Source: Candidatus Bathyarchaeia archaeon (lineage in GTDB: Archaea; Thermoproteota; Bathyarchaeia; Bathyarchaeales; Bathycorpusculaceae). Taken from it: 64,000 nt of DNA. Positions 8,019 to 35,661 of the stretch are shown in pieces (position 1 is the first letter of the stretch; each line of letters starts with the position of its first letter). The notes under the pieces are model-generated. The model was not told the origin of the DNA and made no database searches. It worked only from the letters and a program-made list of their open reading frames with translations. The stretch spans positions 1 to 64,000 of the forward strand of contig JAVZLS010000006.1 in NCBI GenBank assembly GCA_038883715.1, read 5' to 3'. A program made the position numbers and the translations under genes.

Positions 8019-9395
8019 CTATAGTACTATTATGACTGAGATGTCGTTAACGTTTGTGCCCGTTGGACCTGTGAAGATTAGGTCGCCGAGCTGAGAAAAG
8101 AAGTTGTAAGAGTTATTGTCGGCTAGGAATTCCTCAGTCTTAAGCCCCGAGGCTTCTGCCTTTACTATTGTTTTTCCGTCGGCTATTGCTCCTGCAGCGT
8201 CTGTTGGTCCATCCACCCCATCAGTGCTTAATGAAGCTATAACGACGCCTTCAAAGCCTTTAATTTTCAGCGAGGCCGCCAATGCTATTTCTTGGTTTCT
8301 TCCACCCTTGCCTTTTCCAGCAACTGTAACTGTTGTCTCACCGCCAGCCACTATGCCAGCAGGCTTTTTAACTGGGTTGCCGGATGCCAAAATTTCTCGA
8401 GCTAGCGAAGCCAGCATTGTTCCAACATGTCTTGCTTCACCTTCGAGAAGCGATGTTAACAGAAGCGTATTCAAACCTTCTGATTGTAGGGTTTCACATG
8501 CAGTCATGCTTGCGGCTCTGTTGTTTCCAATAACGACGTTGAAAACCTTTTTGAAGATTTCGTCACCAGTCTTCGGCGTTTCTGAGATAAGCCCTTTCTC
8601 CCCATCCGTTAAGACTTTCCTTATTGATTTTGGGGCTTTATCCCACAAACCATATTTCTTTAAGACGTTTATGGCGTCGCTGAAAGTTGTGGAGTCGGGG
8701 ACCGTCGGTCCAGAGGCAATGAAATCCAGCGGGTCGCCTAAAACATCCGATAGGATAAGGTTTAAGATTGTTGCTGGATAAGCCTTCTTAGCAAGCCATC
8801 CGCCCTTAAACTCTGAAATATGCTTCCTAACAGTGTTTATCTCGTTTATTGTGGCGCCACACTTAAGCAGTTCCTCTGTTATCCGCCTCTTATCAGCTAT
8901 TGTTATTTCGCCTCTAGGCATGGGCATTAAGCTGGAGCCACCGCCCGAAATCAAGCATATAATTAAGTCTTCTTCTCCAGCTTTTTCGGCTATTTCTAGC
9001 ATTTTTCTTGTTCCTTCAACTCCGGATTCGTCGGGGATGGGGTGACTTGCTTCGTGAAGTCTAATTATTCCTGTTTTATGCTTGTTCCCTTTTGGAACAT
9101 TTACAAGTCCATCTGTGATTTTGTCACCTAAAACTTCCTCTAAGGCCTCAGCCATTGAGCCGCTTGCCTTCCCTCCACCTATCACATATATGTTCTTGAA
9201 CTTTCCAATGTTGAAAGCTCGCCCGTTAACGTGGAGAATTGAGCCTTCTAGCTTAAGTTTTGATTTAATTAATGATTTTGGGTCTACTGCTTTTATGGCG
9301 GCTTCAAGGCTTTTTAAGGCTAATTCTCTAGCCCTTTTATCGAGAAGTGTCTCGCCGTTCTGAATTAATTGCTCCATATTCTTAATAATCGCCAT
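8019..9395 (-). CDS. Glycerate 2-kinase (MOFRL family)
   Basis: GGGKAS, HPIPD, LISGGGSSL, IASGPT, GGETTV, GGRNQE, TDGVDG, TGTNVND motifs. Confidence 0.93.
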   Translation of the reverse strand: MAIIKNMEQLIQNGETLLDKRARELALKSLEAAIKAVDPKSLIKSKLKLEGSILHVNGRAFNIGKFKNIYVIGGGKASGSMAEALEEVLGDKITDGLVNVPKGNKHKTGIIRLHEASHPIPDESGVEGTRKMLEIAEKAGEEDLIICLISGGGSSLMPMPRGEITIADKRRITEELLKCGATINEINTVRKHISEFKGGWLAKKAYPATILNLILSDVLGDPLDFIASGPTVPDSTTFSDAINVLKKYGLWDKAPKSIRKVLTDGEKGLISETPKTGDEIFKKVFNVVIGNNRAASMTACETLQSEGLNTLLLTSLLEGEARHVGTMLASLAREILASGNPVKKPAGIVAGGETTVTVAGKGKGGRNQEIALAASLKIKGFEGVVIASLSTDGVDGPTDAAGAIADGKTIVKAEASGLKTEEFLADNNSYNFFSQLGDLIFTGPTGTNVNDISVIIVL

Positions 9396-9487
9396 TCGGA
9401 GTACCCTTGTAACTTTTAAGGACGGGGAATCGTAAATGTAATAAGTTAAGCGTTAATAAAGTGTTTTGCACCGCGCAGGTGAACATT

Positions 9488-10495
9488 ATGGCAAAGCCTA
9501 AGGTTTACGTAACCCGTGAGCTTCCAGAAAGAGGAATGAAAATAATAAAGGAACGTTTTGACGCCGAAGTTTGGCCGGAGTATGGTCCGCCGCCGAAGGC
9601 GGAAATAATAAGGAAGGCGCGGGATGTTGACGCCTTAGTCACGCTTTTGTCGGATAAGATTGATGCTGAAGTTTTTGATGCTGCGCCGAAATTGAAAATT
9701 GTCGCTCAGATGGCTGTTGGCTTTGATAACATAGATGTTGCTGAAGCCACAAGGAGAGGCATATATGTGACGAACACCCCTGGCGTTTTAACAGAAACTA
9801 CAGCGGATTTTGCTTGGGCTTTGTTGATGGCTGTTGCGAGGCGGGTTGTTGAGGCAGACAAATATGTTCGCACTGGACAGTGGAAGGTTAGCTGGCACCC
9901 AAGCATGCTTCTGGGCAGGGATGTTTACGGCGCAACACTTGGTATTGTAGGTGCTGGCAGAATAGGAACGGCAGTCGCGAGGAGGGCAAAAGGCTTCAAC
10001 ATGAGGATTCTCTATTATGATGTTGTGCCTATGCCGCCTGAAGTAGAGAAGGAGTTGGGCGCGAAACGTGTGGACTTGGACACTCTTCTAAGGGAATCCG
10101 ACTTTGTCAGTATCCATGTGCCTTTAATGAAGGAGACATATCATCTAATCAACGAGGAGAAGCTTAGGCTGATGAAGAAGACAGCCTACCTAATCAACAA
10201 CTCCAGAGGACCAGTAATAGATGAAAAAGCCCTTTACAAAGCGTTGAAGGAAGGATGGATTGCTGGCGCAGCCCTAGACGTTTTTGAGCAGGAGCCCACG
10301 CCGGTAGATAATCCTCTGCTTAAGCTGGACAACATCGTTGTGGCGCCCCACATCTCAAGCGCCAGCTACGAAACCCGCTCAAGGATGGCTGAGATGGCTG
10401 CGGAAAATTTGGTTGCCTTCTTTGAGGGAAAAACTCCGCCGAACCTCGTTAATCCAGACGTTGTTAAGGTACGCCCGTTATCCAAGCTCTTTTAA
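9488..10495 (+). CDS. gyaR: Glyoxylate/hydroxypyruvate reductase (D-2-hydroxyacid dehydrogenase)
   Basis: [42 protein letters not shown] motifs; AGGTGA SD before ATG 9488. Confidence 0.9.
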
Positions 10496-10591
10496 ACAAT
10501 CATTTCAACATTTTTCAACTATAATGGTTAAATATTCTATCCATGTTAACCTTAACTTTCAATCGCCCTCTCAAAACATTGGTGGTTGTTG

Positions 10592-11770
10592 ATGGTTTCC
10601 ATATTCGCGAAAAGAATGGCATCCCTCGGAACTGAAACGGCTTTTGAAGTGCTTGTCCGTGCAAAAGCCCTTGAAAAACAAGGCAGAGAGATAATCCACT
10701 TGGAAATAGGCGAACCAGACTTTGACACGCCTCAAAACATTAAGGAAGCCGCCGTGAAAGCTCTTTATGCTGGCTACACCCACTATGTGCCAGCGGCCGG
10801 CATCCCAGAATTACGGGAAGCCATAGCCGAGTACATTTCGAAAACCCGAAAAATTACCGTTTACCCAGAAGAGGTTGTTGTCACACCCGGAGCTAAGCCA
10901 ATAATGTTTTTCGCCATATTGGCATGTGTTGAGCGCGGCGACGAGGTCTTATATCCAAATCCAGGTTTTCCAATATACGAGTCCATGATAAATTTTGTTG
11001 GAGCCAAACCAGTACCCATCCCGCTAAAAGAGGAGAACGACTTCCGACTAGACCACGAGTATGTTAAGGCCAAGATAACCAAAAAGACTAAAATGATTAT
11101 TTTGAACTCGCCTGAAAACCCAACTGGCGGCGTTTTAACAAAGGAGGATTTGAAGGTTATAGCTGACTGTATAGCCAAAAGAGACGACGTCATAGTGCTT
11201 TCAGACGAGATTTACAGCAGAATAATCTACGAGGGAAACCATGAAAGTATTGCTTCTCTTCCCGGGATGAAAGAAAAAACCATAATATTGGATGGTTTTT
11301 CGAAAACCTACGCCATGACAGGCTGGAGGCTCGGCTACGGGGTTATGCGAAAAGACCTAGCTGAAAAAATCACACAGCTGATGATTAATTCGAACTCTTG
11401 CACGTGCGCCTTCATCCAAATGGCTGGAGTTGAAGCCCTAAAGGGTCCACAGGACTCTGTTGGAAAAATGGTTGCAGAGTTTAGGAAACGAAGAGAAGTC
11501 ATCGTTTCCGGCTTGAACAACATTAAGGGTATAACTTGCAAAAAGCCTAAGGGCGCTTTCTATGTCTTCCCAAACATAAAGGGGATTGGAAAGACATCTA
11601 AAGAATTTTCAGATTATTTGCTCAATGAGGCTGGTGTGGCGGTTCTGCCAGGCACTTCCTTCGGGAAATATGGCGAGGGATATCTGCGCATATCCTTTGC
11701 AAACTCCATTGAGAACATCAAGAAGGCTTTAGACCGTATAAGCAAGACTGTTGAAAAACTGAAAAGTTAG
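10592..11770 (+). CDS. Class I/II PLP aminotransferase (aspartate aminotransferase-like)
   Basis: GEPDFDTP, NSPENPTG, SDEIY, GFSKTYAMTGWRLGY motifs. Confidence 0.93.
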   Translation: MVSIFAKRMASLGTETAFEVLVRAKALEKQGREIIHLEIGEPDFDTPQNIKEAAVKALYAGYTHYVPAAGIPELREAIAEYISKTRKITVYPEEVVVTPGAKPIMFFAILACVERGDEVLYPNPGFPIYESMINFVGAKPVPIPLKEENDFRLDHEYVKAKITKKTKMIILNSPENPTGGVLTKEDLKVIADCIAKRDDVIVLSDEIYSRIIYEGNHESIASLPGMKEKTIILDGFSKTYAMTGWRLGYGVMRKDLAEKITQLMINSNSCTCAFIQMAGVEALKGPQDSVGKMVAEFRKRREVIVSGLNNIKGITCKKPKGAFYVFPNIKGIGKTSKEFSDYLLNEAGVAVLPGTSFGKYGEGYLRISFANSIENIKKALDRISKTVEKLKS

Positions 11771-17756: not shown

Positions 17757-20441
17757 TTGTTAAGGTTAAAATTGAATCAATTGTTTGCTCTGATTCTAAT
17801 ATGCTTCTTTATTTTGCCCGTGCTCCCTGTAGGTGTTTTAGATACTTTAGAGGATATGCCTAACACTACTGTAGAGGCTATTATTGTTGCGAAAAGTCAT
17901 TTTATTGACGTCCCATTTTATTATCAAGTGAAAACTTACTATTGTGGTCCATCTGCTTTGCAGATGGTTTTTAACTATTTTGGCGAGAATATTTCCCAGC
18001 TTGAGATCGCTGATGTTGCGCGAACAGTTCCTTATGTGACTTATACTGATGAGCTTAGGAGAGCGGCTCACTTTAGTGACATGAGCACTTCCATGGGAAG
18101 CGAAATGTCGGAAAACATAACGGGATACTCTGCTAGAAAGTTGGGATACGCCGCCTTTGAAATGTTCAGTATGACTCTAGATGATTTAAAGACCCTTATT
18201 GACAGGAATTTCCCCATAATTTTGCTTATGAGGTGGGTTCCAAACGAGCCATATGGCCATTATAGGGTCGCTGTAGGCTATAATGCGACGCATGTTTTCT
18301 TGCATGATCCGTGGAATAATGTACTTTGGGGCGGAGACTACGGCGGTCCAAACCTGCCTATGAATTACACTTTCTTTAATGAAATGTGGGACTATTCTGG
18401 CCATTGGGGGTTATTCGTTTCTCCATGGAATGTTAAAATTATAGCACCAACCAACCTTTACGTCGGCCAAACATGCACAGTTACGGCAGCTGTTTCCTAT
18501 GTGTGTCCCCCTCAAACTCCCACCGACATTTATAAAGCCTCTTCATGTAAAGCAACAATAACCTTGCCAGAAGGATTAGCCCTTGCTGATGGTGAATCAC
18601 CAATTAAAAGCTTGGGAGAAATTTACGCCGGTGGTAGCGCTCAAATTTCTTGGAGGGTGAGAGTTGAGCGTCCAGGAAATTATTCGATATCGGTTGAGGC
18701 AGAAGGGAAAATTACTGGAATTGTTGGAGCTAAAACCGATGTCGGCCCAGGCTATCAATATGAAGACAGGATAGGAGGGCGCGGCTTAGGTTTTGTAAGT
18801 GCGGAAGTTGCCCCGCACATATACATCGAAGCAATTAAGCCAGCTGAAGGTGCTCCGGGAACGGAAGTTTTCATTTTTGGAGGGGGAGCCACTCCGAATG
18901 GGACCGTGGTTGCCTTACTCAGTGGACCGATAAATCAGACAACCGTTATTATAGGTTCACAACAAGCAGAAATCCAAGAAGGCGTAACAATCATAGTTAA
19001 CAAGACTTTAGGATATACAGTGGCAGATTCCAACGGGTTCTGGTCTATACAATCCACCGTGCCCAACGTGCCATCGGGAGAATACAAAATCTTTGTTTTG
19101 GACAATTCCACCCAAACAAGCGACGTAACCAGATTTTACGTTTTATCATCAACCCCGGCTCAAATAAAGATAGAGCATATCAGCACAGTTGAGGGATATC
19201 CCGGTACTTTGGTTTTCATTGCGGGACATGGCGCGACCTCAAAAGGTGAAGTTAAGATCTACTTTGACCATTTAAACGTCGCAAGCACAATAGCATACGA
19301 CGACGGAGGGTGGTCAACAACCTTCATTGTTCCAAATGTTAACTCCGGAAACTATACAATTTTATCCTTAGACGTCACATCCAACACCTCTGACACCGTG
19401 GCGTTTAGAGTGCTGGAGATTGCTCAACGAAGCGTTGGAGTCAAGGAAGGCGACTGGGCAAAATACAACATAACCTATTACTATTCAACAAACGATCCCG
19501 CAGCACCCATTTCTCCCATTCCTCCTATCTTCGCCGACATAGATTATCTGCTAATAAGAATCATTTCAGTCGTTAGAACCAACGTCACCTACCAGCTTAT
19601 TATACGCTATAAGAATGGCACTGAACAGGAAAGTATCTCGTGGTTGGATGTAACCACAGGCTTGACCGATTACGGAGTCACAATGCCTTATGGACCGATT
19701 ATTGCGGCAAACCTTACAGCGGGTGATCGGGTTTATCTTAATGCTTACGCCCCAACTATAAATTTAACATCTATAGCATTTTATGCAGGTTTACAAAGGG
19801 AGATTAATTCGCTTTTAATAAAAGCAGAAACCACCATTCCAGACTATTATAGAACAGTTATGACTTTCGAAATTCGCTGGGACAGGATAAGCGGCATGTT
19901 ATGTGAACAAAAAGTGAACGCCAGCTACATCAACATGGAAAAAGGCTACGAAACCAACATGTTTGTTCAGGTAATTATAACAGAGACAAACATTTGGACT
20001 AAACCAAGCGCCATAAATGTGAAAGTGTGTTTCTGCCCGCAAATATTATGCTTAAGAAGCAGAGGCAAATGGATAATTTGCATTGTTAAGCTTCCTAGAG
20101 ACTATACCGTGAAAGATGTCGGCACGTCAGTAATAATGCTTAACGGAACCATTAAAGGCGAAGTTGTTAACAAGGCTGAAAAAAGTCGCTATTTAATTGT
20201 TAAGTTTGATAGAAAAGCTGTCATCGAACTTGTCTATAATGTGACCGCCTGCAATAAAAAGCTTGGAAAGGTATCCTTAACAATAATTGGCGAATTCAAG
20301 GATGGAACAACCTTTTCTGGTACAGCCGCTATATTAATAGTTATGCCACCCGGCAAATATGCCGAGGCTAAAGATTGCACCACTTGCCCATACTTCAAAA
20401 GATCATATTTCATTTTTTGTGGCGTTCCCAATTGCAGCTAA
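17757..20441 (+). CDS. Secreted multidomain C39-like cysteine peptidase with Ig/IPT-like repeats
   Basis: Signal peptide; YYQVKTYYCGPSAL (Gln/Cys), GHYRVAVGY (His), HDPW (Asp); two G.PGT.VFI.G.GAT repeats. Confidence 0.8.
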   Translation: MLRLKLNQLFALILICFFILPVLPVGVLDTLEDMPNTTVEAIIVAKSHFIDVPFYYQVKTYYCGPSALQMVFNYFGENISQLEIADVARTVPYVTYTDELRRAAHFSDMSTSMGSEMSENITGYSARKLGYAAFEMFSMTLDDLKTLIDRNFPIILLMRWVPNEPYGHYRVAVGYNATHVFLHDPWNNVLWGGDYGGPNLPMNYTFFNEMWDYSGHWGLFVSPWNVKIIAPTNLYVGQTCTVTAAVSYVCPPQTPTDIYKASSCKATITLPEGLALADGESPIKSLGEIYAGGSAQISWRVRVERPGNYSISVEAEGKITGIVGAKTDVGPGYQYEDRIGGRGLGFVSAEVAPHIYIEAIKPAEGAPGTEVFIFGGGATPNGTVVALLSGPINQTTVIIGSQQAEIQEGVTIIVNKTLGYTVADSNGFWSIQSTVPNVPSGEYKIFVLDNSTQTSDVTRFYVLSSTPAQIKIEHISTVEGYPGTLVFIAGHGATSKGEVKIYFDHLNVASTIAYDDGGWSTTFIVPNVNSGNYTILSLDVTSNTSDTVAFRVLEIAQRSVGVKEGDWAKYNITYYYSTNDPAAPISPIPPIFADIDYLLIRIISVVRTNVTYQLIIRYKNGTEQESISWLDVTTGLTDYGVTMPYGPIIAANLTAGDRVYLNAYAPTINLTSIAFYAGLQREINSLLIKAETTIPDYYRTVMTFEIRWDRISGMLCEQKVNASYINMEKGYETNMFVQVIITETNIWTKPSAINVKVCFCPQILCLRSRGKWIICIVKLPRDYTVKDVGTSVIMLNGTIKGEVVNKAEKSRYLIVKFDRKAVIELVYNVTACNKKLGKVSLTIIGEFKDGTTFSGTAAILIVMPPGKYAEAKDCTTCPYFKRSYFIFCGVPNCS

Positions 20442-20462: not shown

Positions 20463-21089
20463 TTAGTTTAAGTTTTTGATTCTGTTTATGAATTCTTCTC
20501 TTTCTTTTTCCACTTCTTTTATCCTCTGTTTTAGGAATGCGAGTTCTTCGGAGATTTCTTCAAGCCAGCCTTTTATGGCTTTCACGCCTTCTTCCGGTGT
20601 CATTTCTGCGAGGTATTTGGAAACATCCTGCGGTTTGCGTTTTTCCAGAGCGGTTAGCGGATAGTTGATTTTTGGGGGCTTTAGAAAGGGGAAAAAGTGT
20701 CTTGTAGTTCTTGGTTCCATAAGCTTTCCGCTTAGAGCCGCCGTGACCACGTTTTCAGCCGTTATGGGTGAGTTTGAATTTCCAATGTACCTGTGGATGC
20801 GCCTCCTACCGATGCGAATTTGGGGATTTTGAAAAATGTTGACGCATAGAACCGGTATTTGTGTGTAGCCCAAGCTTTTTAGGGCGAGCCAACGGTGCAT
20901 TCCGTCAATTATGACATTTGTCTTTTCATCGGCAATTATTGGATATTTTAGAACGCCGTCTCGTAGAATCTCCTTTTTCAGCATCTCCAAATATAGAGGG
21001 GAGCCTTTCTCATGAGGCTTTAATGCGTCAATTGGTAAAAGTACAATTTTGAACGCCTCTGTCTTTTCGGTTTGGGTTGCGGTTGCCAC
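20463..21089 (-). CDS. ParB/Srx-fold protein resembling free serine kinase SerK/SbnI, with C-terminal coiled coil
   Basis: LKPHE, PIIAD, IIDGMHRW, MEPRTTRHFFPF motifs; likely GTG start at 21089 (ORF track extends to 21152). Confidence 0.65.
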   Translation of the reverse strand: MATATQTEKTEAFKIVLLPIDALKPHEKGSPLYLEMLKKEILRDGVLKYPIIADEKTNVIIDGMHRWLALKSLGYTQIPVLCVNIFQNPQIRIGRRRIHRYIGNSNSPITAENVVTAALSGKLMEPRTTRHFFPFLKPPKINYPLTALEKRKPQDVSKYLAEMTPEEGVKAIKGWLEEISEELAFLKQRIKEVEKEREEFINRIKNLN

Positions 21090-21111
21090 TTGCCTGTCGC
21101 CCTTAAGGGGG

Positions 21112-22473
21112 TTATTTAACAATTGTTGGAACCTCGATTTTTTCCGGCTCATAATCCACCAGTTTTCCTGCCAAGAACTGCTCGTAGGCGCCTAAATCCA
21201 ATAGTCCGTGCCCGCTATAGTTCATGGCGATAACCTTCTTCTCACCAGTTTTTCGACACCGCAAGGCTTCGTCTATAACGAATTTCAGGCTGTGGGCTGT
21301 TTCAGGTGCTATTATTAGGCCTTCTGCTTGCGCTAGAATTTGGGCTGCTTGGAAGACTTCAGTTTGGTGGTAGGCGACTGAACGCATATACCCCCTATGG
21401 ATTAGGTATGATATTGAGGGTGCCATGCCATGGTATCTTAAGCCTCCAGCATGTATTGGGGGACACGCGTAGCCATGTCCTATTGTGAGCATTTTAAGCA
21501 GCGGCGTCATTTCAGCCGTGTCGCCGAAATCGTACGTGTAAACTCCTTTGGTTGTGTGGGGAACAGCCTTAGACTCGCAAGCCACAAACTCTGTTTCAGT
21601 TTTGCCCCTAAGCTTGTCCATCATGAACGGATAGCAGAAACCAGCATAGTTGGAGCCCCCGCCTATGCATCCGCAAACGATATCCGGGTACTCGCCAATG
21701 ATCTCAAGCTGTTTTTTGGCTTCCAAGCCTATGATGGTCTGGTGCAACAGCACATGGTTTAGAACTGAGCCCAAAGAATACCTCGTGTCCTCATGTGTTA
21801 TCGTGTCCTCTATGGCTTCACTTATGGCGATGCCCAAAGTTCCCGGATGATTTGGGTTTTCCTTCAAGAGCTTTCTGCCAAAGTTTGTCTGGTCGCTTGG
21901 TGAAGGAAACATCTCAGCGCCATATAACTGTGCTATGGTTCTTCTTCCGGGCTTCTGCTGGCAGCTTACGCGAACCATGTATATGCGGCATTTCAAACTG
22001 AAAATTGTACACGCGAAAGCCAGTGCCGTGCCCCACTGTCCAGCACCGGTTTCCGTTACAAGCCTTTTTATGCCTTGTTCCTTGTTGTAGTAGGCTTGGG
22101 CTATGGCAGTATTCGTCTTGTGGCTTCCAGTTGGGCTAAAATTCTCGCATTTAAAGTATATTTTCGCCGGAGTTTTCAGAAACCTTTCAAGCCTTCTAGC
22201 CCTATAAAGCGGCGTTGGGCGGGGCAATCGCAAATAGGCGTCTAAAACCTCTTCTGGAATTTTTATGAAACGTTCTGTGGAAACCTCTTGCCTAATCAGC
22301 TCCTTTGCAAATATTCTCTCCAGGAGTTTTGGGTCTATGGGTTTTAGGGTTGTGGGATCCAACGGCGGCGGAAGCGGCTCCGGCAGGTCTGCTTGAATGT
22401 TGTACCATGCAGTGGGGATTTCATCAGCGCCTAACATTGTGAAGTATTCGCTTTTCTGAACTTTAAAGCTCAT
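21112..22473 (-). CDS. trpB2: TrpB2 (tryptophan synthase beta-2 family)
   Basis: IPTAWYNI, RPTPLYRA, SPTGSHK, TETGAGQWG, GSVLNHV, GGGSN, HAGGLRYHG, APETAH, SGHGLLDL. Confidence 0.95.
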   Translation of the reverse strand: MSFKVQKSEYFTMLGADEIPTAWYNIQADLPEPLPPPLDPTTLKPIDPKLLERIFAKELIRQEVSTERFIKIPEEVLDAYLRLPRPTPLYRARRLERFLKTPAKIYFKCENFSPTGSHKTNTAIAQAYYNKEQGIKRLVTETGAGQWGTALAFACTIFSLKCRIYMVRVSCQQKPGRRTIAQLYGAEMFPSPSDQTNFGRKLLKENPNHPGTLGIAISEAIEDTITHEDTRYSLGSVLNHVLLHQTIIGLEAKKQLEIIGEYPDIVCGCIGGGSNYAGFCYPFMMDKLRGKTETEFVACESKAVPHTTKGVYTYDFGDTAEMTPLLKMLTIGHGYACPPIHAGGLRYHGMAPSISYLIHRGYMRSVAYHQTEVFQAAQILAQAEGLIIAPETAHSLKFVIDEALRCRKTGEKKVIAMNYSGHGLLDLGAYEQFLAGKLVDYEPEKIEVPTIVK

Positions 22474-22486
22474 TATTATTCACCTA

Positions 22487-22559
22487 TGTACATTTTGATA
22501 CGTTTAAGCACATAATAAAACATTGAACATATTTATACTTTATTGCACAAAAAAGTACA
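22487..22559. promoter_or_regulatory. TRP-box (TGTACA-like) operator arrays in the divergent trpB2/trpY promoter
   Basis: TGTACA 22487, AGCACA 22507, TGAACA 22524, TATACT 22534, TGCACA 22544, AGTACA 22554; 10-bp phasing; overlaps TTTATA at 22532. Confidence 0.75.
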
Positions 22560-22575
22560 TTAGGCAGACAGAAAC

Positions 22576-23079
22576 ATGTGGAACACGATAAAAAAGCACT
22601 TCGAAAACTATCCAGAACGCCTAAAAGTAGCCAGAATCCTCGTAGAAAACGGACTAAGCATAAAAAATGGAAAAATATACTTGAACGAGATAGAGATTCC
22701 GCCAACACGAATAGCAAGAGTGACAGGAGTAGACAGGAGAACAGTAAACGAAACAATAAACACTATAAGAGCGAACCGCGAACTCCGCCTAATATTCGAA
22801 GGCTTAAGGTCAGCTGGGCACTCCCTAAAAGAAATAGCAAAACATTTGGAACTCGGCGTGGTAGAAATAACTCCAGTGGATGCCAGAATGCCTGGCATAT
22901 TGGCAAATTCAGCCATGATACTAGCAAAAAACGGCCTAAGTATAAGACAGGCAATAGTTGACGACCCAGAGCTGTCACCAGAACCAAAGCTAACACTTAT
23001 TGTGGAAAGGAAAGTTCCGGGCGAGCTCATCCCCGAATTCTTAAAAGTTAAAGGCGTTGCTAAAGTCTCTATTTACTAA
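22576..23079 (+). CDS. trpY: TrpY-type tryptophan-responsive regulator (HTH + ACT, COG2150)
   Basis: MW..I...FENYP.R.KVA, GVDRRTV, GVVEI...DARMPGILA, SIRQA..DDPEL, C-terminal VSIY; divergent from trpB2 with TRP boxes between. Confidence 0.85.
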   Translation: MWNTIKKHFENYPERLKVARILVENGLSIKNGKIYLNEIEIPPTRIARVTGVDRRTVNETINTIRANRELRLIFEGLRSAGHSLKEIAKHLELGVVEITPVDARMPGILANSAMILAKNGLSIRQAIVDDPELSPEPKLTLIVERKVPGELIPEFLKVKGVAKVSIY

Positions 23080-24028
23080 AAAATTTGTCAACGATAAGCT
23101 TTGCGACGGCGGCGTCTTGTATTGCCAGACCAACAGCCTTGAAGATTGTTATTTCCTTATTGTTAGTTCGTCCGGGTTTTTTGTGTGTAACGATTTCGCC
23201 TAATTCGGCGTATATGTGCTTTTCCGTGACGGTTCCTTCTTTAATCGGTATTATTATGTCGCCAGCTTCTTCTAATGCTGCCCTTTTTAGGTCTACGATA
23301 ACCTTTGATTTTACTATGGTTTCTGTGTCTAGCTCTCTGGCGTGTGGGTAATATGAGCCTATAGCGTTGATATGAGTCCCCTCCCTCACCCACTCTCCCT
23401 TAACCACCGGGTCAGCGGATGTTGTGGCTGTTATTATTATGTCGGAATCTTTAACAGCGTCGACAGGTGAATTTACAGGTGCCACGTCTACGCCCAATTT
23501 TTTGGACATTTCATCGGCGAAGGCTCTTTTTGCATTTTCTATTTTGTCGTATGCGTAAACTTTCTCTATGTCTCTAACTTCTTTAACAGCCCATAACTGA
23601 GTTCTGCCTTGCACCCCACAGCCTATTATTCCAACCTTCTTTGAATCTTTCCGCGCCAAATATTTTGTTGCCACTCCGCTGACTGCGCCCGTTCTAATCG
23701 CGGTTAAGTATGTGGCATCCATCACAGCGGTTACTTTCCCCGTTTCCAAGTCATAAACTAAAAGGGTGGCAACTGTTGTTGGAAGATTGTACTTCACGTT
23801 GTTTGGGAATATTCCAAAAACCTTTGTAACGGCTATTTTTGTCTCTTCTAAATATGCGCTCATTTGGGAGATGCTTCCATTTTTCAGCATGAGGGTTGTT
23901 CGTTCCGGCAGCATCGCCTTTCCTAAATATAGCTCCTTAAAGGCTTCTTCGACGGCGTCTATGGCTTCTTGCATAGTTATGAGACGTTGTATGTCAGCAT
24001 CGCTCAGAAAAAGCATTGAAAATGACAC
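23069..24028 (-). CDS. Ornithine cyclodeaminase/mu-crystallin family protein (imine reductase / alanine dehydrogenase-like)
   Basis: LTAIRTGAVSGVAT, GCGVQG, HINAIGS, EEAGD, FKAVGLAIQD motifs. Confidence 0.9.
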   Translation of the reverse strand: MSFSMLFLSDADIQRLITMQEAIDAVEEAFKELYLGKAMLPERTTLMLKNGSISQMSAYLEETKIAVTKVFGIFPNNVKYNLPTTVATLLVYDLETGKVTAVMDATYLTAIRTGAVSGVATKYLARKDSKKVGIIGCGVQGRTQLWAVKEVRDIEKVYAYDKIENAKRAFADEMSKKLGVDVAPVNSPVDAVKDSDIIITATTSADPVVKGEWVREGTHINAIGSYYPHARELDTETIVKSKVIVDLKRAALEEAGDIIIPIKEGTVTEKHIYAELGEIVTHKKPGRTNNKEITIFKAVGLAIQDAAVAKLIVDKFFSK

Positions 24029-25036
24029 CTAGCTCAATAGGAAGCCATATTTTATCGGGTCATCTTTTTCTATTATGCACTGTTGTAAACCTATTATGTA
24101 TGCCCTTGCGGAGAGCTTTGGCACTATCGCCTTATATTTGCCGACTTTTGTTTCCCGGCAGATTTCGCCGATCATTGTTAGGTCTGGATGAACCAAACTC
24201 TCAACGATTAAGCGTTCCCCTGTCTTGAATTTTCCCTTAGCCCAAAGCGTAGCTAACTTGGCACTGACAGATGTTCCGGCCGGTGATACACATATCGTGT
24301 CCGCGTAGACATTTGCGTGCCTAGCGTTGTGTTCGGGTTTGATGGGTTTGGCTGAGAAGGTTACAAGTTCAATTTTGTTTAATTCTGGGTTTTCTGGGTG
24401 CTCCACTTTTATTTGCTTGTTTGCCGCATTAAGTATTTTCATGCCAACTTGGATTAGTTCACGTGCATTTTCCGGCTTAACTTGGACGCCGACATCATCT
24501 GGGTCAACAAATACGTAGTAAAGCCCACCGAAAGCTACGTCCACGTTGATTTCGCCGATATCTGGAACCTTAACTTTCTTTGCGCCTTCATAGAAGGATG
24601 AGATGCCTTCAAAGGATATTTCTTGGACTTCGCCATTCTCAACTTTTGCCTCCACCTTAACGAGTCCTGCGGCGGTGTCAAGGGTTATTTCTGTTATTGG
24701 TTCTTCAACTTCAACCATTCCTTGTTCAATTAAGACTTTTGTCACGCTGAATGTGCTGTCTCCACAAGAGTTGAAGTAGCCGCCGGTGTATGTAAATATC
24801 ACACCATAATCTGCCTTTGGATTGGCTGGTTCGGTGATTATAGCGCCCAATATTCCCGAGAAGCCTCTCGGCTGCATCATTAGGGCTTTTCTCCAGTTGT
24901 CAAAATGCTCTTTACAGTACTGTGTCTTCTCCCACATTGTTTTACCTGGAATCCGTGGGAAGCCGCTCACAACAACCTTGGTTGTTTCACCAGAAGAATG
25001 AGTTTCAACAACCGTTATCACTTTTCCAACCTTCAT
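24029..25036 (-). CDS. Proline racemase-family protein with atypical catalytic motifs
   Basis: THSSGE, PRG, SCGD (cf. MCGH), DVAFGG, SPAGTS (cf. SPCGTG), DDPIKYGF; ATG at 25036. Confidence 0.85.
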   Translation of the reverse strand: MKVGKVITVVETHSSGETTKVVVSGFPRIPGKTMWEKTQYCKEHFDNWRKALMMQPRGFSGILGAIITEPANPKADYGVIFTYTGGYFNSCGDSTFSVTKVLIEQGMVEVEEPITEITLDTAAGLVKVEAKVENGEVQEISFEGISSFYEGAKKVKVPDIGEINVDVAFGGLYYVFVDPDDVGVQVKPENARELIQVGMKILNAANKQIKVEHPENPELNKIELVTFSAKPIKPEHNARHANVYADTICVSPAGTSVSAKLATLWAKGKFKTGERLIVESLVHPDLTMIGEICRETKVGKYKAIVPKLSARAYIIGLQQCIIEKDDPIKYGFLLS

Positions 25037-25146
25037 ACAGATTCCCCGCACGGAGATGACTGTTAAGGGTATGTTGAATATAAAAATCTTGAGCATAAAA
25101 TTTTAAAGGTTTGGGAGAAGATATGCGTGCTAAGTGGTGACGAGAA

Positions 25147-34005: not shown

Positions 34006-35661
34006 TTATAATTTCAGCTTTCTTTTTGAAAGGATAAGGGCTGCTGGGGAAATCATGAGCAGTGGTAGGATTAGACTTGGTGGGAATTCCGGAATTACGT
34101 GGGTTCCTTGGATAGTGACCGTTTTTGTGCTGTGGTTGTAGGTGAAGTAGAGATATGTGAAGTTTTCATCTTCAAATTCAAGATAGTTGGTTATAGGCTG
34201 ATCCCCTATAGTTATGGTCCATCCGTCTTCTACCCACATAAGGCTTTTCGGAATAGTTACTCTGCAGAAGCCCATTGTTCCATAATCGCCGGTAACGTTA
34301 AACCGTAAGAAAGCTCCCCCGTCTGGATTAAAATAGAAACTTGAAACGGTGGAATTGCTAATAACTTCAACATTGTAGGCAACACTATTCCATATGCCAG
34401 CATCGAACTTGTTGAATGGAGCCATGAGTGGATAACGGTCTTGATTACGAGAGTTAATACTGCATGCCTTATCGCCTATTCCATCACTTCCTGTTTTATT
34501 TTGATAAATTCCACTTTTTGTATCAGTGCCTACATAGTTGCTCCAAAAGTTACCGCCAGATGGGTAACCATCGTCCCAAATGTTAACCGAACTATCAGTG
34601 TCTACATTCAGCGCATTGCCAATAAAATTATTATGATATATGAAGTTGGTCGAGGTGTCAGCAATACCTACGCCGTGCCAGTTATTTTTAATAATGTTAG
34701 CAAATATTTTATTGTTTTTTGGGTACTCGCCACCAATTGGACGCCCTTTTATACATATTCCTACATCACAACCTTCAATTTCATTATTGCAAATGATATT
34801 TTTGAATGCCATAATCGTAATGCCCTCACCATCAACATCAACAATTCTGTTCCCAGAAACAAAATTTTCATCTCCATCTAAGTGAATCCCCTGACCAGAT
34901 TGAGGCCCACTTACATAATTGTTTTGTATAACATTTTGCGGGCTGTCAATTTTGATACTTCGCACTTGATTGTCAACGACGCGATTTCCGGAGATAGTGT
35001 TATTTGACCCAATAATATAAATGCCGAATTCCGTTCTTTCGACGCGATTTTCTATGAAGGAATTATTGTGGCTTCTTAGCATAACTATACCATATGCTAT
35101 ATCATATGTAGTAAAGTTTGCAAGAGTATTGTCATCTATAACGTTAAAATGAGAATCTTCAAGGTATATGCAATATGCAGTTTCAATAGTGTTTTTTGAA
35201 ATGAGATTATTATGAGAGTTAATTACATGTATTCCATAATCGGCTATTTTAATTTTGTTTGAAAAATAACTACAATGGGAAGAGTTAGCTGAGTAAATCG
35301 CATTTCCAAAACCAATTATTTTCATATTGCATATGGTGACATTACGCCGATGCTGAATTGCGATGCCTTTATAATAATATCCTTGTGCGTTTGGACTACT
35401 TTGGATGACAAATCCTGCACCATCAAGCAATATGTTGTCCCTTTCAATTATAATCGCATCATTGTAGCTTGTAATGTTGTCGGTTAAGGTATATACGTCA
35501 CCATTTCTTTGAATTGGTGCGCCTTCAGGGTCTATGGTCCCATCAGCTCTAATATAAACTGTTCCGGTCCAGTCTGTCTTGGCTGGTTTAATGTTAAATG
35601 CAAAAGCCGAAATGCCTATCAAAAAAATTGTGAGCACAATTGTATAAATTATCCTCTTCAT
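34006..35661 (-). CDS. Secreted NosD/parallel beta-helix protein with PEF-CTERM-like sorting signal
   Basis: Signal peptide; Asn-rich SxNNxIxxN repeats; WDDGYPSGGNFWS, DGIGD, DRYPL; VIPEFP + hydrophobic + KRK tail. Confidence 0.85.
   Translation of the reverse strand: MKRIIYTIVLTIFLIGISAFAFNIKPAKTDWTGTVYIRADGTIDPEGAPIQRNGDVYTLTDNITSYNDAIIIERDNILLDGAGFVIQSSPNAQGYYYKGIAIQHRRNVTICNMKIIGFGNAIYSANSSHCSYFSNKIKIADYGIHVINSHNNLISKNTIETAYCIYLEDSHFNVIDDNTLANFTTYDIAYGIVMLRSHNNSFIENRVERTEFGIYIIGSNNTISGNRVVDNQVRSIKIDSPQNVIQNNYVSGPQSGQGIHLDGDENFVSGNRIVDVDGEGITIMAFKNIICNNEIEGCDVGICIKGRPIGGEYPKNNKIFANIIKNNWHGVGIADTSTNFIYHNNFIGNALNVDTDSSVNIWDDGYPSGGNFWSNYVGTDTKSGIYQNKTGSDGIGDKACSINSRNQDRYPLMAPFNKFDAGIWNSVAYNVEVISNSTVSSFYFNPDGGAFLRFNVTGDYGTMGFCRVTIPKSLMWVEDGWTITIGDQPITNYLEFEDENFTYLYFTYNHSTKTVTIQGTHVIPEFPPSLILPLLMISPAALILSKRKLKL

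Follow-up and report, generated by a model that had tools for sequence, protein, structure and literature searches.

Background

Free serine kinases with a fold derived from ParB and sulfiredoxin (Srx) are known from bacteria and archaea. In Staphylococcus, SbnI, which is both a free serine kinase and a regulator of staphyloferrin B synthesis, is encoded beside SbnA, a pyridoxal 5'-phosphate (PLP)-dependent enzyme that consumes phosphoserine. The ADP-dependent SerK of Thermococcus kodakarensis (TK0378) feeds O-phosphoserine to a PLP-dependent cysteine synthase, and the relevant passages of a 2016 study place clear SerK homologues only in Thermococcales and Desulfurococcales (PMC5120207). Here we analyse a stretch of 64,000 nt (the window) of contig JAVZLS010000006.1, assembly GCA_038883715.1, from a hot-spring Candidatus Bathyarchaeia archaeon, in which a small gene for a putative SerK/SbnI-like protein follows trpB2, encoding a stand-alone tryptophan synthase beta chain, and both genes lie divergent from trpY, encoding a TrpY-family transcription regulator.

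Stand-alone TrpB2 proteins encoded outside trp operons have long been puzzling, not least because no physiological setting was at hand for the preference for O-phosphoserine reported of them. Regulation of trpB2 by TrpY is reportedly the subject of a paper entitled 'TrpY regulation of trpB2 transcription'. O-phospho-L-serine is a substrate of TrpB2 enzymes according to Busch et al. 2014, as cited in a passage of PMC11917138, and the pertinent section of a 2007 neighbourhood analysis recorded no second conserved neighbourhood of trpB2 besides trp operons (PMC1854888). TrpY itself acts as a repressor when tryptophan is present, binding to TRP boxes that lie between divergent promoters, and its Thermococcus homologue does not regulate trp genes, as stated in excerpts from PMC6737238.

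The initial annotation of the locus, made from the sequence alone, took the small protein to be a minimal SerK-like kinase that makes phosphoserine specifically for TrpB2, giving a TrpY-controlled route from serine and indole to tryptophan without TrpA. Our profile searches, structural modelling and comparison of related loci support this proposal on every point that could be checked computationally, and we assign a probability of roughly 0.6 to a three-gene module in which the kinase would make O-phosphoserine for a TrpB2-based, tryptophan-repressed salvage of indole. All of its parts are of known kinds; what is new is the shortened form of the kinase and its predicted operon with trpB2 under TrpY.

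Results

Relationship of the small protein to SerK and SbnI

When the small protein was compared with PDB sequences by phmmer, the seven best matches were all SerK, its Pyrococcus homologue or SbnI (E 2.2e-9, for SerK 5x0b, to 1.1e-7), and Noc came next at E 0.088. The HMMER alignment to SerK falls into two pieces, query residues 12-107 pairing with SerK 15-112 and query residues 110-145 with SerK 204-238. A confident AlphaFold2 model built on 30 relatives (predicted local distance difference test score, pLDDT, 91.6; predicted template modelling score, pTM, 0.84) comprises a kinase-like core, residues 12-152, in which a ParB/Srx-type N-terminal fold is joined by a small C-terminal lobe, and one long C-terminal helix, residues 165-207. 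Foldseek placed nine SerK and SbnI entries at the head of its PDB matches to the model (SerK 5x0b, 5x0k, 5x0g, 5x0j and 5x0e, Pyrococcus 1vk1, and SbnI 6nr6, 5ujd and 5uje; E 2.3e-8 to 8.4e-7), with Noc, ParB and Srx beginning at E 1.7e-4. Superposition by VIA-align, matching model residues 7-152 with chain residues 1-242, gave the same order: 125-139 residues were aligned at a root-mean-square deviation of 1.5-2.9 Å, with Z scores of 12.6-17.2 for SerK (5x0b and other entries) and the Pyrococcus protein (1vk1) and of 11.7-14.3 for SbnI (5uje, 5ujd and 6nr6), whereas the next match, sulfiredoxin, reached Z 7.1, and ParB, Noc and sulfiredoxin (Z 5.7-7.1) had the N-terminal nucleotide-binding fold in common with the model.

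Both the profile and the structure comparisons thus group the small protein with SerK and SbnI, as had been supposed, and not with partition ParB or sulfiredoxin. They point to a shortened relative of these kinases, a deletion variant with an added helix, which by score cut-offs and architecture lies outside the SerK equivalog family. Compared with the 242-residue SerK, the modelled protein lacks the segment equivalent to SerK ~113-203 and carries a C-terminal helix of 43 residues. Like SbnI, it has the same N-terminal motifs and is encoded beside a PLP enzyme that would consume its phosphoserine; it differs from SbnI in lineage, partner enzyme and length, and there is no evidence that it binds heme or DNA. 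The logic proposed here is that by which SerK supplies cysteine synthase. Unlike SerK, the small protein has TrpB2 as its partner, is encoded in a putative operon under TrpY, and occurs in Bathyarchaeia, outside the range given for SerK in 2016.

The three motifs on which the initial annotation had rested its assignment are present and align with SerK (Table 1): the small protein keeps the catalytic glutamate in a K-P-H-E context, together with DGxHRW and P-x-T-T-R-H-x-x-P-F. The column of E27 reads 'kpheq' in 5x0b and 'kphqq' in 5x0j, the E30Q entry. We take the corresponding Glu30 of SerK to be the catalytic base, a role that fits the titles of the PDB entries in which it is mutated (E30Q in 5x0j and 5x0k, E30A in 5x0e and 5x0g). 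Wherever the orthologous loci described below cover these positions, the P, H and E of the first motif (63 of 63 loci), D62, G63, H65, R66 and W67 (64 of 64) and T129, R130, H131 and F135 (63 of 63) are invariant, and G63 and R66 are kept across 30 diverse relatives. One of the 65 best orthologue alignments contains an in-frame stop.

The identity of a canonical partition ParB was also considered, and rejected. The small protein scores below the cut-offs of both Pfam ParB_N (19.6 bits; cut-off 26.3) and TIGR00180 (16.4 bits; cut-off 58.45), and domain scans found in it neither a helix-turn-helix (HTH) or other DNA-binding domain nor a ParB C-terminal dimerisation domain. No ParA was found among the genes scanned across the window.

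The trpB2 and trpY genes and the spacer between them

The layout described in the initial annotation was confirmed from the sequence: the small gene, here called serK-like, follows trpB2 on the same strand after a gap of 22 nt (21090-21111), and the trpY gene is divergent from both. The start of the serK-like gene is not settled, since an alternative in-frame ATG at 21152 would lengthen the frame to 229 aa and make it overlap trpB2 by 41 nt; conservation of the 208-aa protein starts at about residue 12-13.

By its profile scores the large gene encodes TrpB2 and not TrpB1. Its product passes both TrpB2 models, with 695.4 bits for NF009057 (cut-off 366) and 680.9 bits for TIGR01415 (cut-off 518.85), and reaches only 157.9 bits with the TrpB1 model TIGR00263 (cut-off 392.45). 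Its best PDB relatives are the homologous Sulfolobus solfataricus enzymes TrpB2i (6hul, chain B; E 6.7e-152) and TrpB2a (4qys; E 1.2e-139). A prediction of the complex of TrpB2 with the small protein, using one copy of each and their own alignments, returned a score of 0.00 and gives no answer on binding. The trpY product matches the NCBIfam family TrpY_fam (NF053754) at 195.1 bits against a cut-off of 180, residues 2-164 of 167 covering profile positions 1-163 of 163.

In a layout reminiscent of the TrpY system of Methanothermobacter thermautotrophicus, the TrpY-family gene is divergent and repeated TGTNCW boxes, putative TRP boxes, lie over a TATA-like element. On the trpB2-sense strand the boxes are TGTACT (22559-22554), TGTGCA (22549-22544), TGTTCA (22529-22524), TGTGCT (22512-22507) and TGTACA (22492-22487), the last being what we take to be the TRP-box consensus. 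The TATA-like element AAAGTATAAATA lies at 22541-22530. In an alignment of nine orthologous spacers the box positions are kept, and the G-T-A-C columns and the TATA-like block AAAGTATAAATA are invariant. Three exact TGTNCA sites lie in the 102 nt of the spacer, against some 0.16 expected from the density of the motif in the window. Over its full length the window shows no enrichment of TGTNCA (99 occurrences; expectation 110.7), and weight attaches solely to the local clustering of the sites and to its conservation. Unlike that of M. thermautotrophicus, the unit is a putative two-gene salvage operon, found mostly in genomes in which no trp operon was detected. Given that the Thermococcus homologue of TrpY does not regulate trp genes, regulation at this locus cannot be assumed.

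Table 1. Positions of the module, its motifs and related genes of the same genome (window coordinates unless a contig or locus is named)
Feature	Position	Strand	Description
serK-like gene	20463..21089	-	208 aa; GTG start at 21089-21087; shortened SerK/SbnI-like putative free serine kinase
PHE motif	codons 21009..21017	-	P25-H26-E27; E27 at the column of T. kodakarensis SerK Glu30
DGMHRW motif	codons 20889..20906	-	D62-W67; SerK counterpart DGHHRW
PRTTRHFFPF motif	codons 20685..20714	-	P126-F135; counterpart PKTTRHVLPF near the SerK C-terminus
trpB2	21112..22473	-	453 aa; stand-alone TrpB2-type tryptophan synthase beta chain; TAA stop at 21114-21112
Promoter/operator spacer (putative)	22474..22575	.	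102 nt; five TGTNCW boxes and a TATA-like element
trpY	22576..23079	+	167 aa; TrpY-family transcription regulator, divergent from trpB2
Second TrpB2	G000:C6:70954-72222 (L005:1477-2781)	-	434 aa; 7 kb past the window end; NF009057 592.3 bits
Kinase-sulfhydrylase fusion	L002:1495-3219 (contig C5, outside the window)	+	574 aa; SerK-like domain, degenerate second copy, PLP domain

Conservation of the gene pair

A search of the protein database returned 614 relatives of the small protein at E <= 1e-3, the best 120 of which are 66-96% identical to it. Those with names are Bathyarchaeia entries called 'ParB N-terminal domain-containing protein' or 'hypothetical protein'. The expectation that automated pipelines would see no more than a ParB-like protein in this gene has thus been borne out by public annotation and, the curated models missing the shortened form, hundreds of genes are labelled only 'ParB N-terminal domain-containing protein'.

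A scan of one genome per species gave 65 loci that encode the small protein, mostly labelled Bathyarchaeia or Bathyarchaeota, with two entries named 'uncultured archaeon' and one named 'Acidiferrales bacterium'. All 65 have trpB2 immediately upstream of the small gene and on its strand, and trpY is divergent in each of the 59 loci that are not cut at that point, the other six ending at a contig edge. The gene pair is accordingly strictly conserved, and in this respect trpB2 departs from the picture of 2007 in having a conserved neighbour. The outer flanks differ: a tandem of ornithine cyclodeaminase (OCD) and proline racemase genes occurs in one of the 65 loci, and a peptidase C39-like gene likewise in one. 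In most loci the partner trpB2 is 79-98% identical to that of the window, and in five it is 49-57% identical; since these partners belong to two subclades, the linkage has outlived a change of trpB2 subtype. Two other genomes carry a distinct SerK-like form (142-158 aa, 38% identical, no helix) between trpY and trpB2, and a third has a form of 223 aa behind trpB2.

Among 201 genomes of the class, full-length orthologues, defined by at least 57% identity, were found in nine, distributed over three families and directly preceded by trpB2 in every case. A sample of 401 genomes across the phylum, with a threshold of E <= 1e-25, yielded orthologues in six, all within the window's own order.

A fused paralogue and the wider SerK-like family

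The only other SerK-like sequence in the window's genome, 41% identical to the small protein, forms the N-terminus of a protein of 574 aa encoded on another contig (Table 1). The PLP domain of this protein is by a wide margin closest to the O-phosphoserine sulfhydrylase of Aeropyrum pernix (1wkv), which it matches at E 3.8e-62, and the next cysteine synthase follows at 2.8e-33. The fusion is intact in two further surveyed genomes. Its N-terminal 280 residues are covered to 99% or more by 97 of 119 relatives in the database, where the annotation goes no further than PLP-dependent enzyme. By the Rosetta-stone argument, the fusion of a kinase domain to a phosphoserine-consuming enzyme suggests that the domain makes phosphoserine, and the 574-aa protein is likely to be a bifunctional serine-to-cysteine enzyme.

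Proteins P0373-P0388 (~534-545 aa) combine a ThiS domain (PF02597) with a PALP domain in one chain, and they resemble the linker and second-repeat region of the kinase-sulfhydrylase fusion, the match extending over roughly half of the query. Residues 2-73 of 1wkv_B align weakly with the small-protein model (Z 5.0, 71 residues), a structural match that may be due to chance or to the remains of a SerK-like domain once fused there.

Bathyarchaeia also encode SerK-like relatives of ~285 aa that keep the central segment and match the SerK model from end to end at 82-104 bits. A gene for a ThiS/Urm1-like sulfur carrier adjoins this form in 8 of 20 loci (L103, L114, L115 and L117-L121); one further copy follows ThiF (L122), and another stands after an above-cut-off cysK and beside a seryl-tRNA synthetase gene (L109). 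These contexts hint at a route to cysteine that combines phosphoserine with a thiocarboxylate. Still smaller SerK-like genes (~136-172 aa; L124-L136, Bathyarchaeia) are not next to trpB2 and occur in varied contexts: a CysK-like gene follows them in three loci (L127, L129 and L131), a SepSecS/SepCysS-like gene precedes one (L132), and a class I lysyl-tRNA synthetase gene precedes two. SerK-like domains are also found in fused proteins (P0126, P0129, P0133, P0136, P0137, P0145, P0185 and P0236) with several types of partner, among them NMNAT/PPAT-like domains of the cytidylyltransferase fold, at either end, and the others named in the Discussion; in the first six of these proteins the alignment takes in the C-terminal helix that characterises the 200-aa form.

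Tryptophan and serine pathways

In the window's genome, of 1.33 Mb and rated 90.3% complete, we found neither TrpA nor TrpB1 above cut-off, no indole-3-glycerol-phosphate synthase (IGPS, trpC), no TrpD and no chorismate-binding TrpE. The genome does encode a second TrpB2 (Table 1), 54% identical to that of the window, and only 8 nt separate the start of its gene from the end of a contig. Beside the equivalent short TrpB2 gene of three other genomes, G145, G020 and G181, lies a divergent gene for TrpA. Across the surveyed genomes that carry the module, eight of nine show neither TrpA nor IGPS, and three of those eight are rated 100% complete. TrpA occurs in 88 of the 201 class genomes. In the window's family it was found in all 21 genomes that have no SerK-like gene linked to trpB2, as against 2 of the 6 that do, a contrast among related genomes that is to be read as a pattern and not as a statistical test.

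Neither SerB nor SepRS was found above cut-off in the same genome. The window itself contains genes for a glycerate 2-kinase-like protein (8019-9395, minus strand), a glyoxylate/hydroxypyruvate reductase (9461-10495, plus strand; 543 bits, above cut-off) and an aspartate-aminotransferase-like protein (10586-11770, plus strand). This cluster could provide a non-phosphorylated serine/glycerate route, which would yield free serine rather than phosphoserine.

Discussion

A putative indole-salvage module

The preferred reading of these data is as follows. TrpY would bind the TGTNCW boxes of the spacer and, with tryptophan plentiful, would repress the divergent trpB2/serK-like operon, as the behaviour of the family in Methanothermobacter suggests. 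Once the operon is expressed, the 208-aa kinase would phosphorylate free L-serine to O-phospho-L-serine, which TrpB2, to judge from published enzymology, would join to scavenged indole, so that tryptophan is formed and phosphate released. One phosphoryl bond would thereby be spent on a good leaving group for the beta-replacement, and such a route would suit the scavenging of scarce indole where the rest of the trp pathway is missing. In this scheme we infer which substrate and donor the kinase uses, which way its reaction runs, how the module is regulated and that its genes are co-transcribed.

Several observations weigh against this reading. Many genomes contain a trpB2 gene 68-78% identical to that of the window with no adjoining SerK-like gene, which argues that TrpB2 needs no dedicated kinase. 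As for the route without TrpA of the initial annotation, neither TrpB1 nor trpA was found, and the first of these results stands; the absence of trpA is not secure, given that the second trpB2 lies at a contig end and that its equivalent in G145 has trpA beside it, and the trp genes that were not found could be hidden in a gap of the assembly. G145, the closest surveyed relative, carries the module and possesses both TrpA and IGPS. Phosphoserine might also come from 3-phosphoglycerate, considering that the genome encodes a short SerA-like dehydrogenase (339 bits; cut-off 454) and, besides class V enzymes of the cysteine-desulfurase type, one AGT-like class V aminotransferase. The nucleotide donor, too, may be other than ATP, since an archaeal SerK-like protein was reported to bind CTP rather than ATP (PMC12704722). 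The low SerK and SbnI scores of the small protein, its missing segment and the fusions of its relatives, taken up next, count against the reading as well.

A kinase of the SerK fold might act on something other than serine, such as threonine, homoserine, glycerate or an ethanolamine-like compound, its product serving another TrpB2 chemistry or an unrelated purpose. The small protein falls far short of the equivalog cut-off for SerK (NF053625, 55.4 bits against 380) and of that for SbnI (NF033589, 34.3 bits against 350), and with ~90 central residues missing (SerK ~113-203) it does not have the full-length architecture. Its nearest relatives outside the orthologous clade, which are 31-39% identical, of the same length and with the same C-terminal helix, are fused to NMNAT/PPAT-like, sugar-phosphate nucleotidyltransferase or asparagine-synthase-like domains; farther off in the family, the partners fused to SerK-like domains are of the MTA-nucleosidase-like or FNR-like kind, and in 6 of 13 loci the gene preceding the mini form encodes BacA, of the undecaprenyl-diphosphatase family. 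Taken together, the varied fusions and BacA contexts indicate that the wider family is probably not serine-specific throughout. For the clade studied here we nevertheless consider another substrate improbable: the partner is always trpB2 and the regulator always trpY, the TTRH signature common to SerK and SbnI is invariant, the paralogue of the same genome is fused to an enzyme of the O-phosphoserine sulfhydrylase type, and O-phospho-L-serine is the only phospho-substrate of TrpB2 that we met in the cited portions of the literature. We regard it as similarly improbable that the small protein is a non-metabolic, nucleotide-binding switch or regulator, acting on TrpB2 or on the promoter and using its C-terminal helix for dimerisation or docking. 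ParB-fold proteins do act as CTP switches, the ParB/Srx fold binds diverse nucleotides (PMC12704722, in the section cited), NCBIfam names SbnI a bifunctional transcriptional regulator/O-phospho-L-serine synthase, and helix 165-207 has no counterpart in SerK. A pure switch, however, would have no need of the catalytic glutamate and the substrate-side TTRH, both of which are invariant; the protein carries neither an HTH nor any other DNA-binding domain, trpY is already part of the module, and forms of ~150 aa that adjoin trpB2 do without the helix.

Two further explanations fit the data less well. The protein might work in the opposite direction, consuming phosphoserine to provide free serine for a serine-using TrpB2, in the manner of the SerBK proposal for DUF1015; a serine-kinase-like family has been put forward as a replacement for SerB (GapMind 2026, in the relevant portion of PMC13759103), and the window's genome has no SerB above cut-off together with the SerA-like dehydrogenase and the AGT-like aminotransferase mentioned above. 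The same source describes this reverse reaction as thermodynamically unfavourable, with an equilibrium constant estimated at 4e-4; the literature cited above treats TrpB2 enzymes as dependent on phosphoserine; and the fusion of the paralogue to a phosphoserine-consuming type of sulfhydrylase can be understood only if phosphoserine is what the kinase domain produces. We therefore hold the reverse direction to be very unlikely. That the small gene simply travels with trpB2, an adjacency devoid of functional meaning, would accord with the presence of an orthologue in only 9 of 201 surveyed class members. Set against this are the 65 adjacencies in 65 loci despite differing flanks, with trpB2 genes from two subclades, the two genomes in which a different SerK-like subfamily sits on the other side of trpB2, and the strict conservation of the motifs, which leave this already disfavoured explanation with hardly any credit. 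Phosphoserine supply to TrpB2 thus remains the reading that we favour.

Relation to earlier work and implications

Full-text literature searches found no work linking a SerK-like gene with trpB2 and none describing the kinase-sulfhydrylase fusion; likewise, they returned no description of the module, in agreement with the initial annotation, which had known of none. Partners of the PLP or cysteine-synthase kind go unmentioned in the main text of a survey of ParB-fold fusions from 2025. One candidate for a prior link, PMC5816558, was discarded: it contains both 'trpB2' and 'ParB-like', but as unrelated genes.

A strictly conserved operon of trpB2 with a gene of the serine-kinase type under a tryptophan regulator would supply the physiological context that the phosphoserine preference of TrpB2 has lacked, and the question can be put to a direct test with two small soluble proteins. 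The family of free serine kinases would be enlarged by a shortened variety that escapes the curated models. Seen alongside the kinase-sulfhydrylase fusion, the module points to a general principle by which phosphoserine is produced as needed, right beside its consumer. Uncultured Bathyarchaeia without a trp pathway, moreover, may not be strict tryptophan auxotrophs if indole is available.

A bolder extension, which as a whole we think rather doubtful, would be a 'phosphoserine economy' of Bathyarchaeia, with shortened SerK-type kinases serving as dedicated, physically coupled feeders of each PLP enzyme that consumes phosphoserine. The kinases would be fused to O-phosphoserine sulfhydrylase, placed in operons with CysK-like or SepCysS-like enzymes, or docked to TrpB2 through the C-terminal helix; trace indole would be captured at high affinity for one nucleotide per tryptophan, and in several lineages the TrpY-gated route of two enzymes might have taken over from the trp pathway with its seven steps.

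Sequencing runs and neighbouring genes

The window stretch, or part of it, is contained in 18 of 20 listed sequencing runs, all labelled as hot-springs metagenome. No RNA run is on record among the runs with the stretch, and two libraries labelled metatranscriptomic are flagged 'probably DNA' and available only as contigs. In four runs compared with the region, contigs cover it; one of them, of 1222 nt, spans the 3' part of trpB2 and the serK-like gene. This coverage has no bearing on transcription. Scans of the window for Rfam families and tRNAs gave no matches.

On the far side of the serK-like gene, and converging on it with 21 nt between the stops, lies a gene (17757-20441) for a protein of 894 aa with an N-terminal peptidase C39-like domain and Ig/TIG-like repeats. 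On the other flank, adjoining trpY, genes for an OCD/mu-crystallin and a proline-racemase-family protein stand in tandem on the minus strand (23069-25096), an arrangement that looks like a proline or hydroxyproline conversion pair. Further along, G+C content dips to 0.38 between 34001 and 36000, compared with ~0.44-0.47 elsewhere in the window, and the dip covers a gene on the minus strand (34006-35661) for a NosD-like parallel beta-helix repeat protein.

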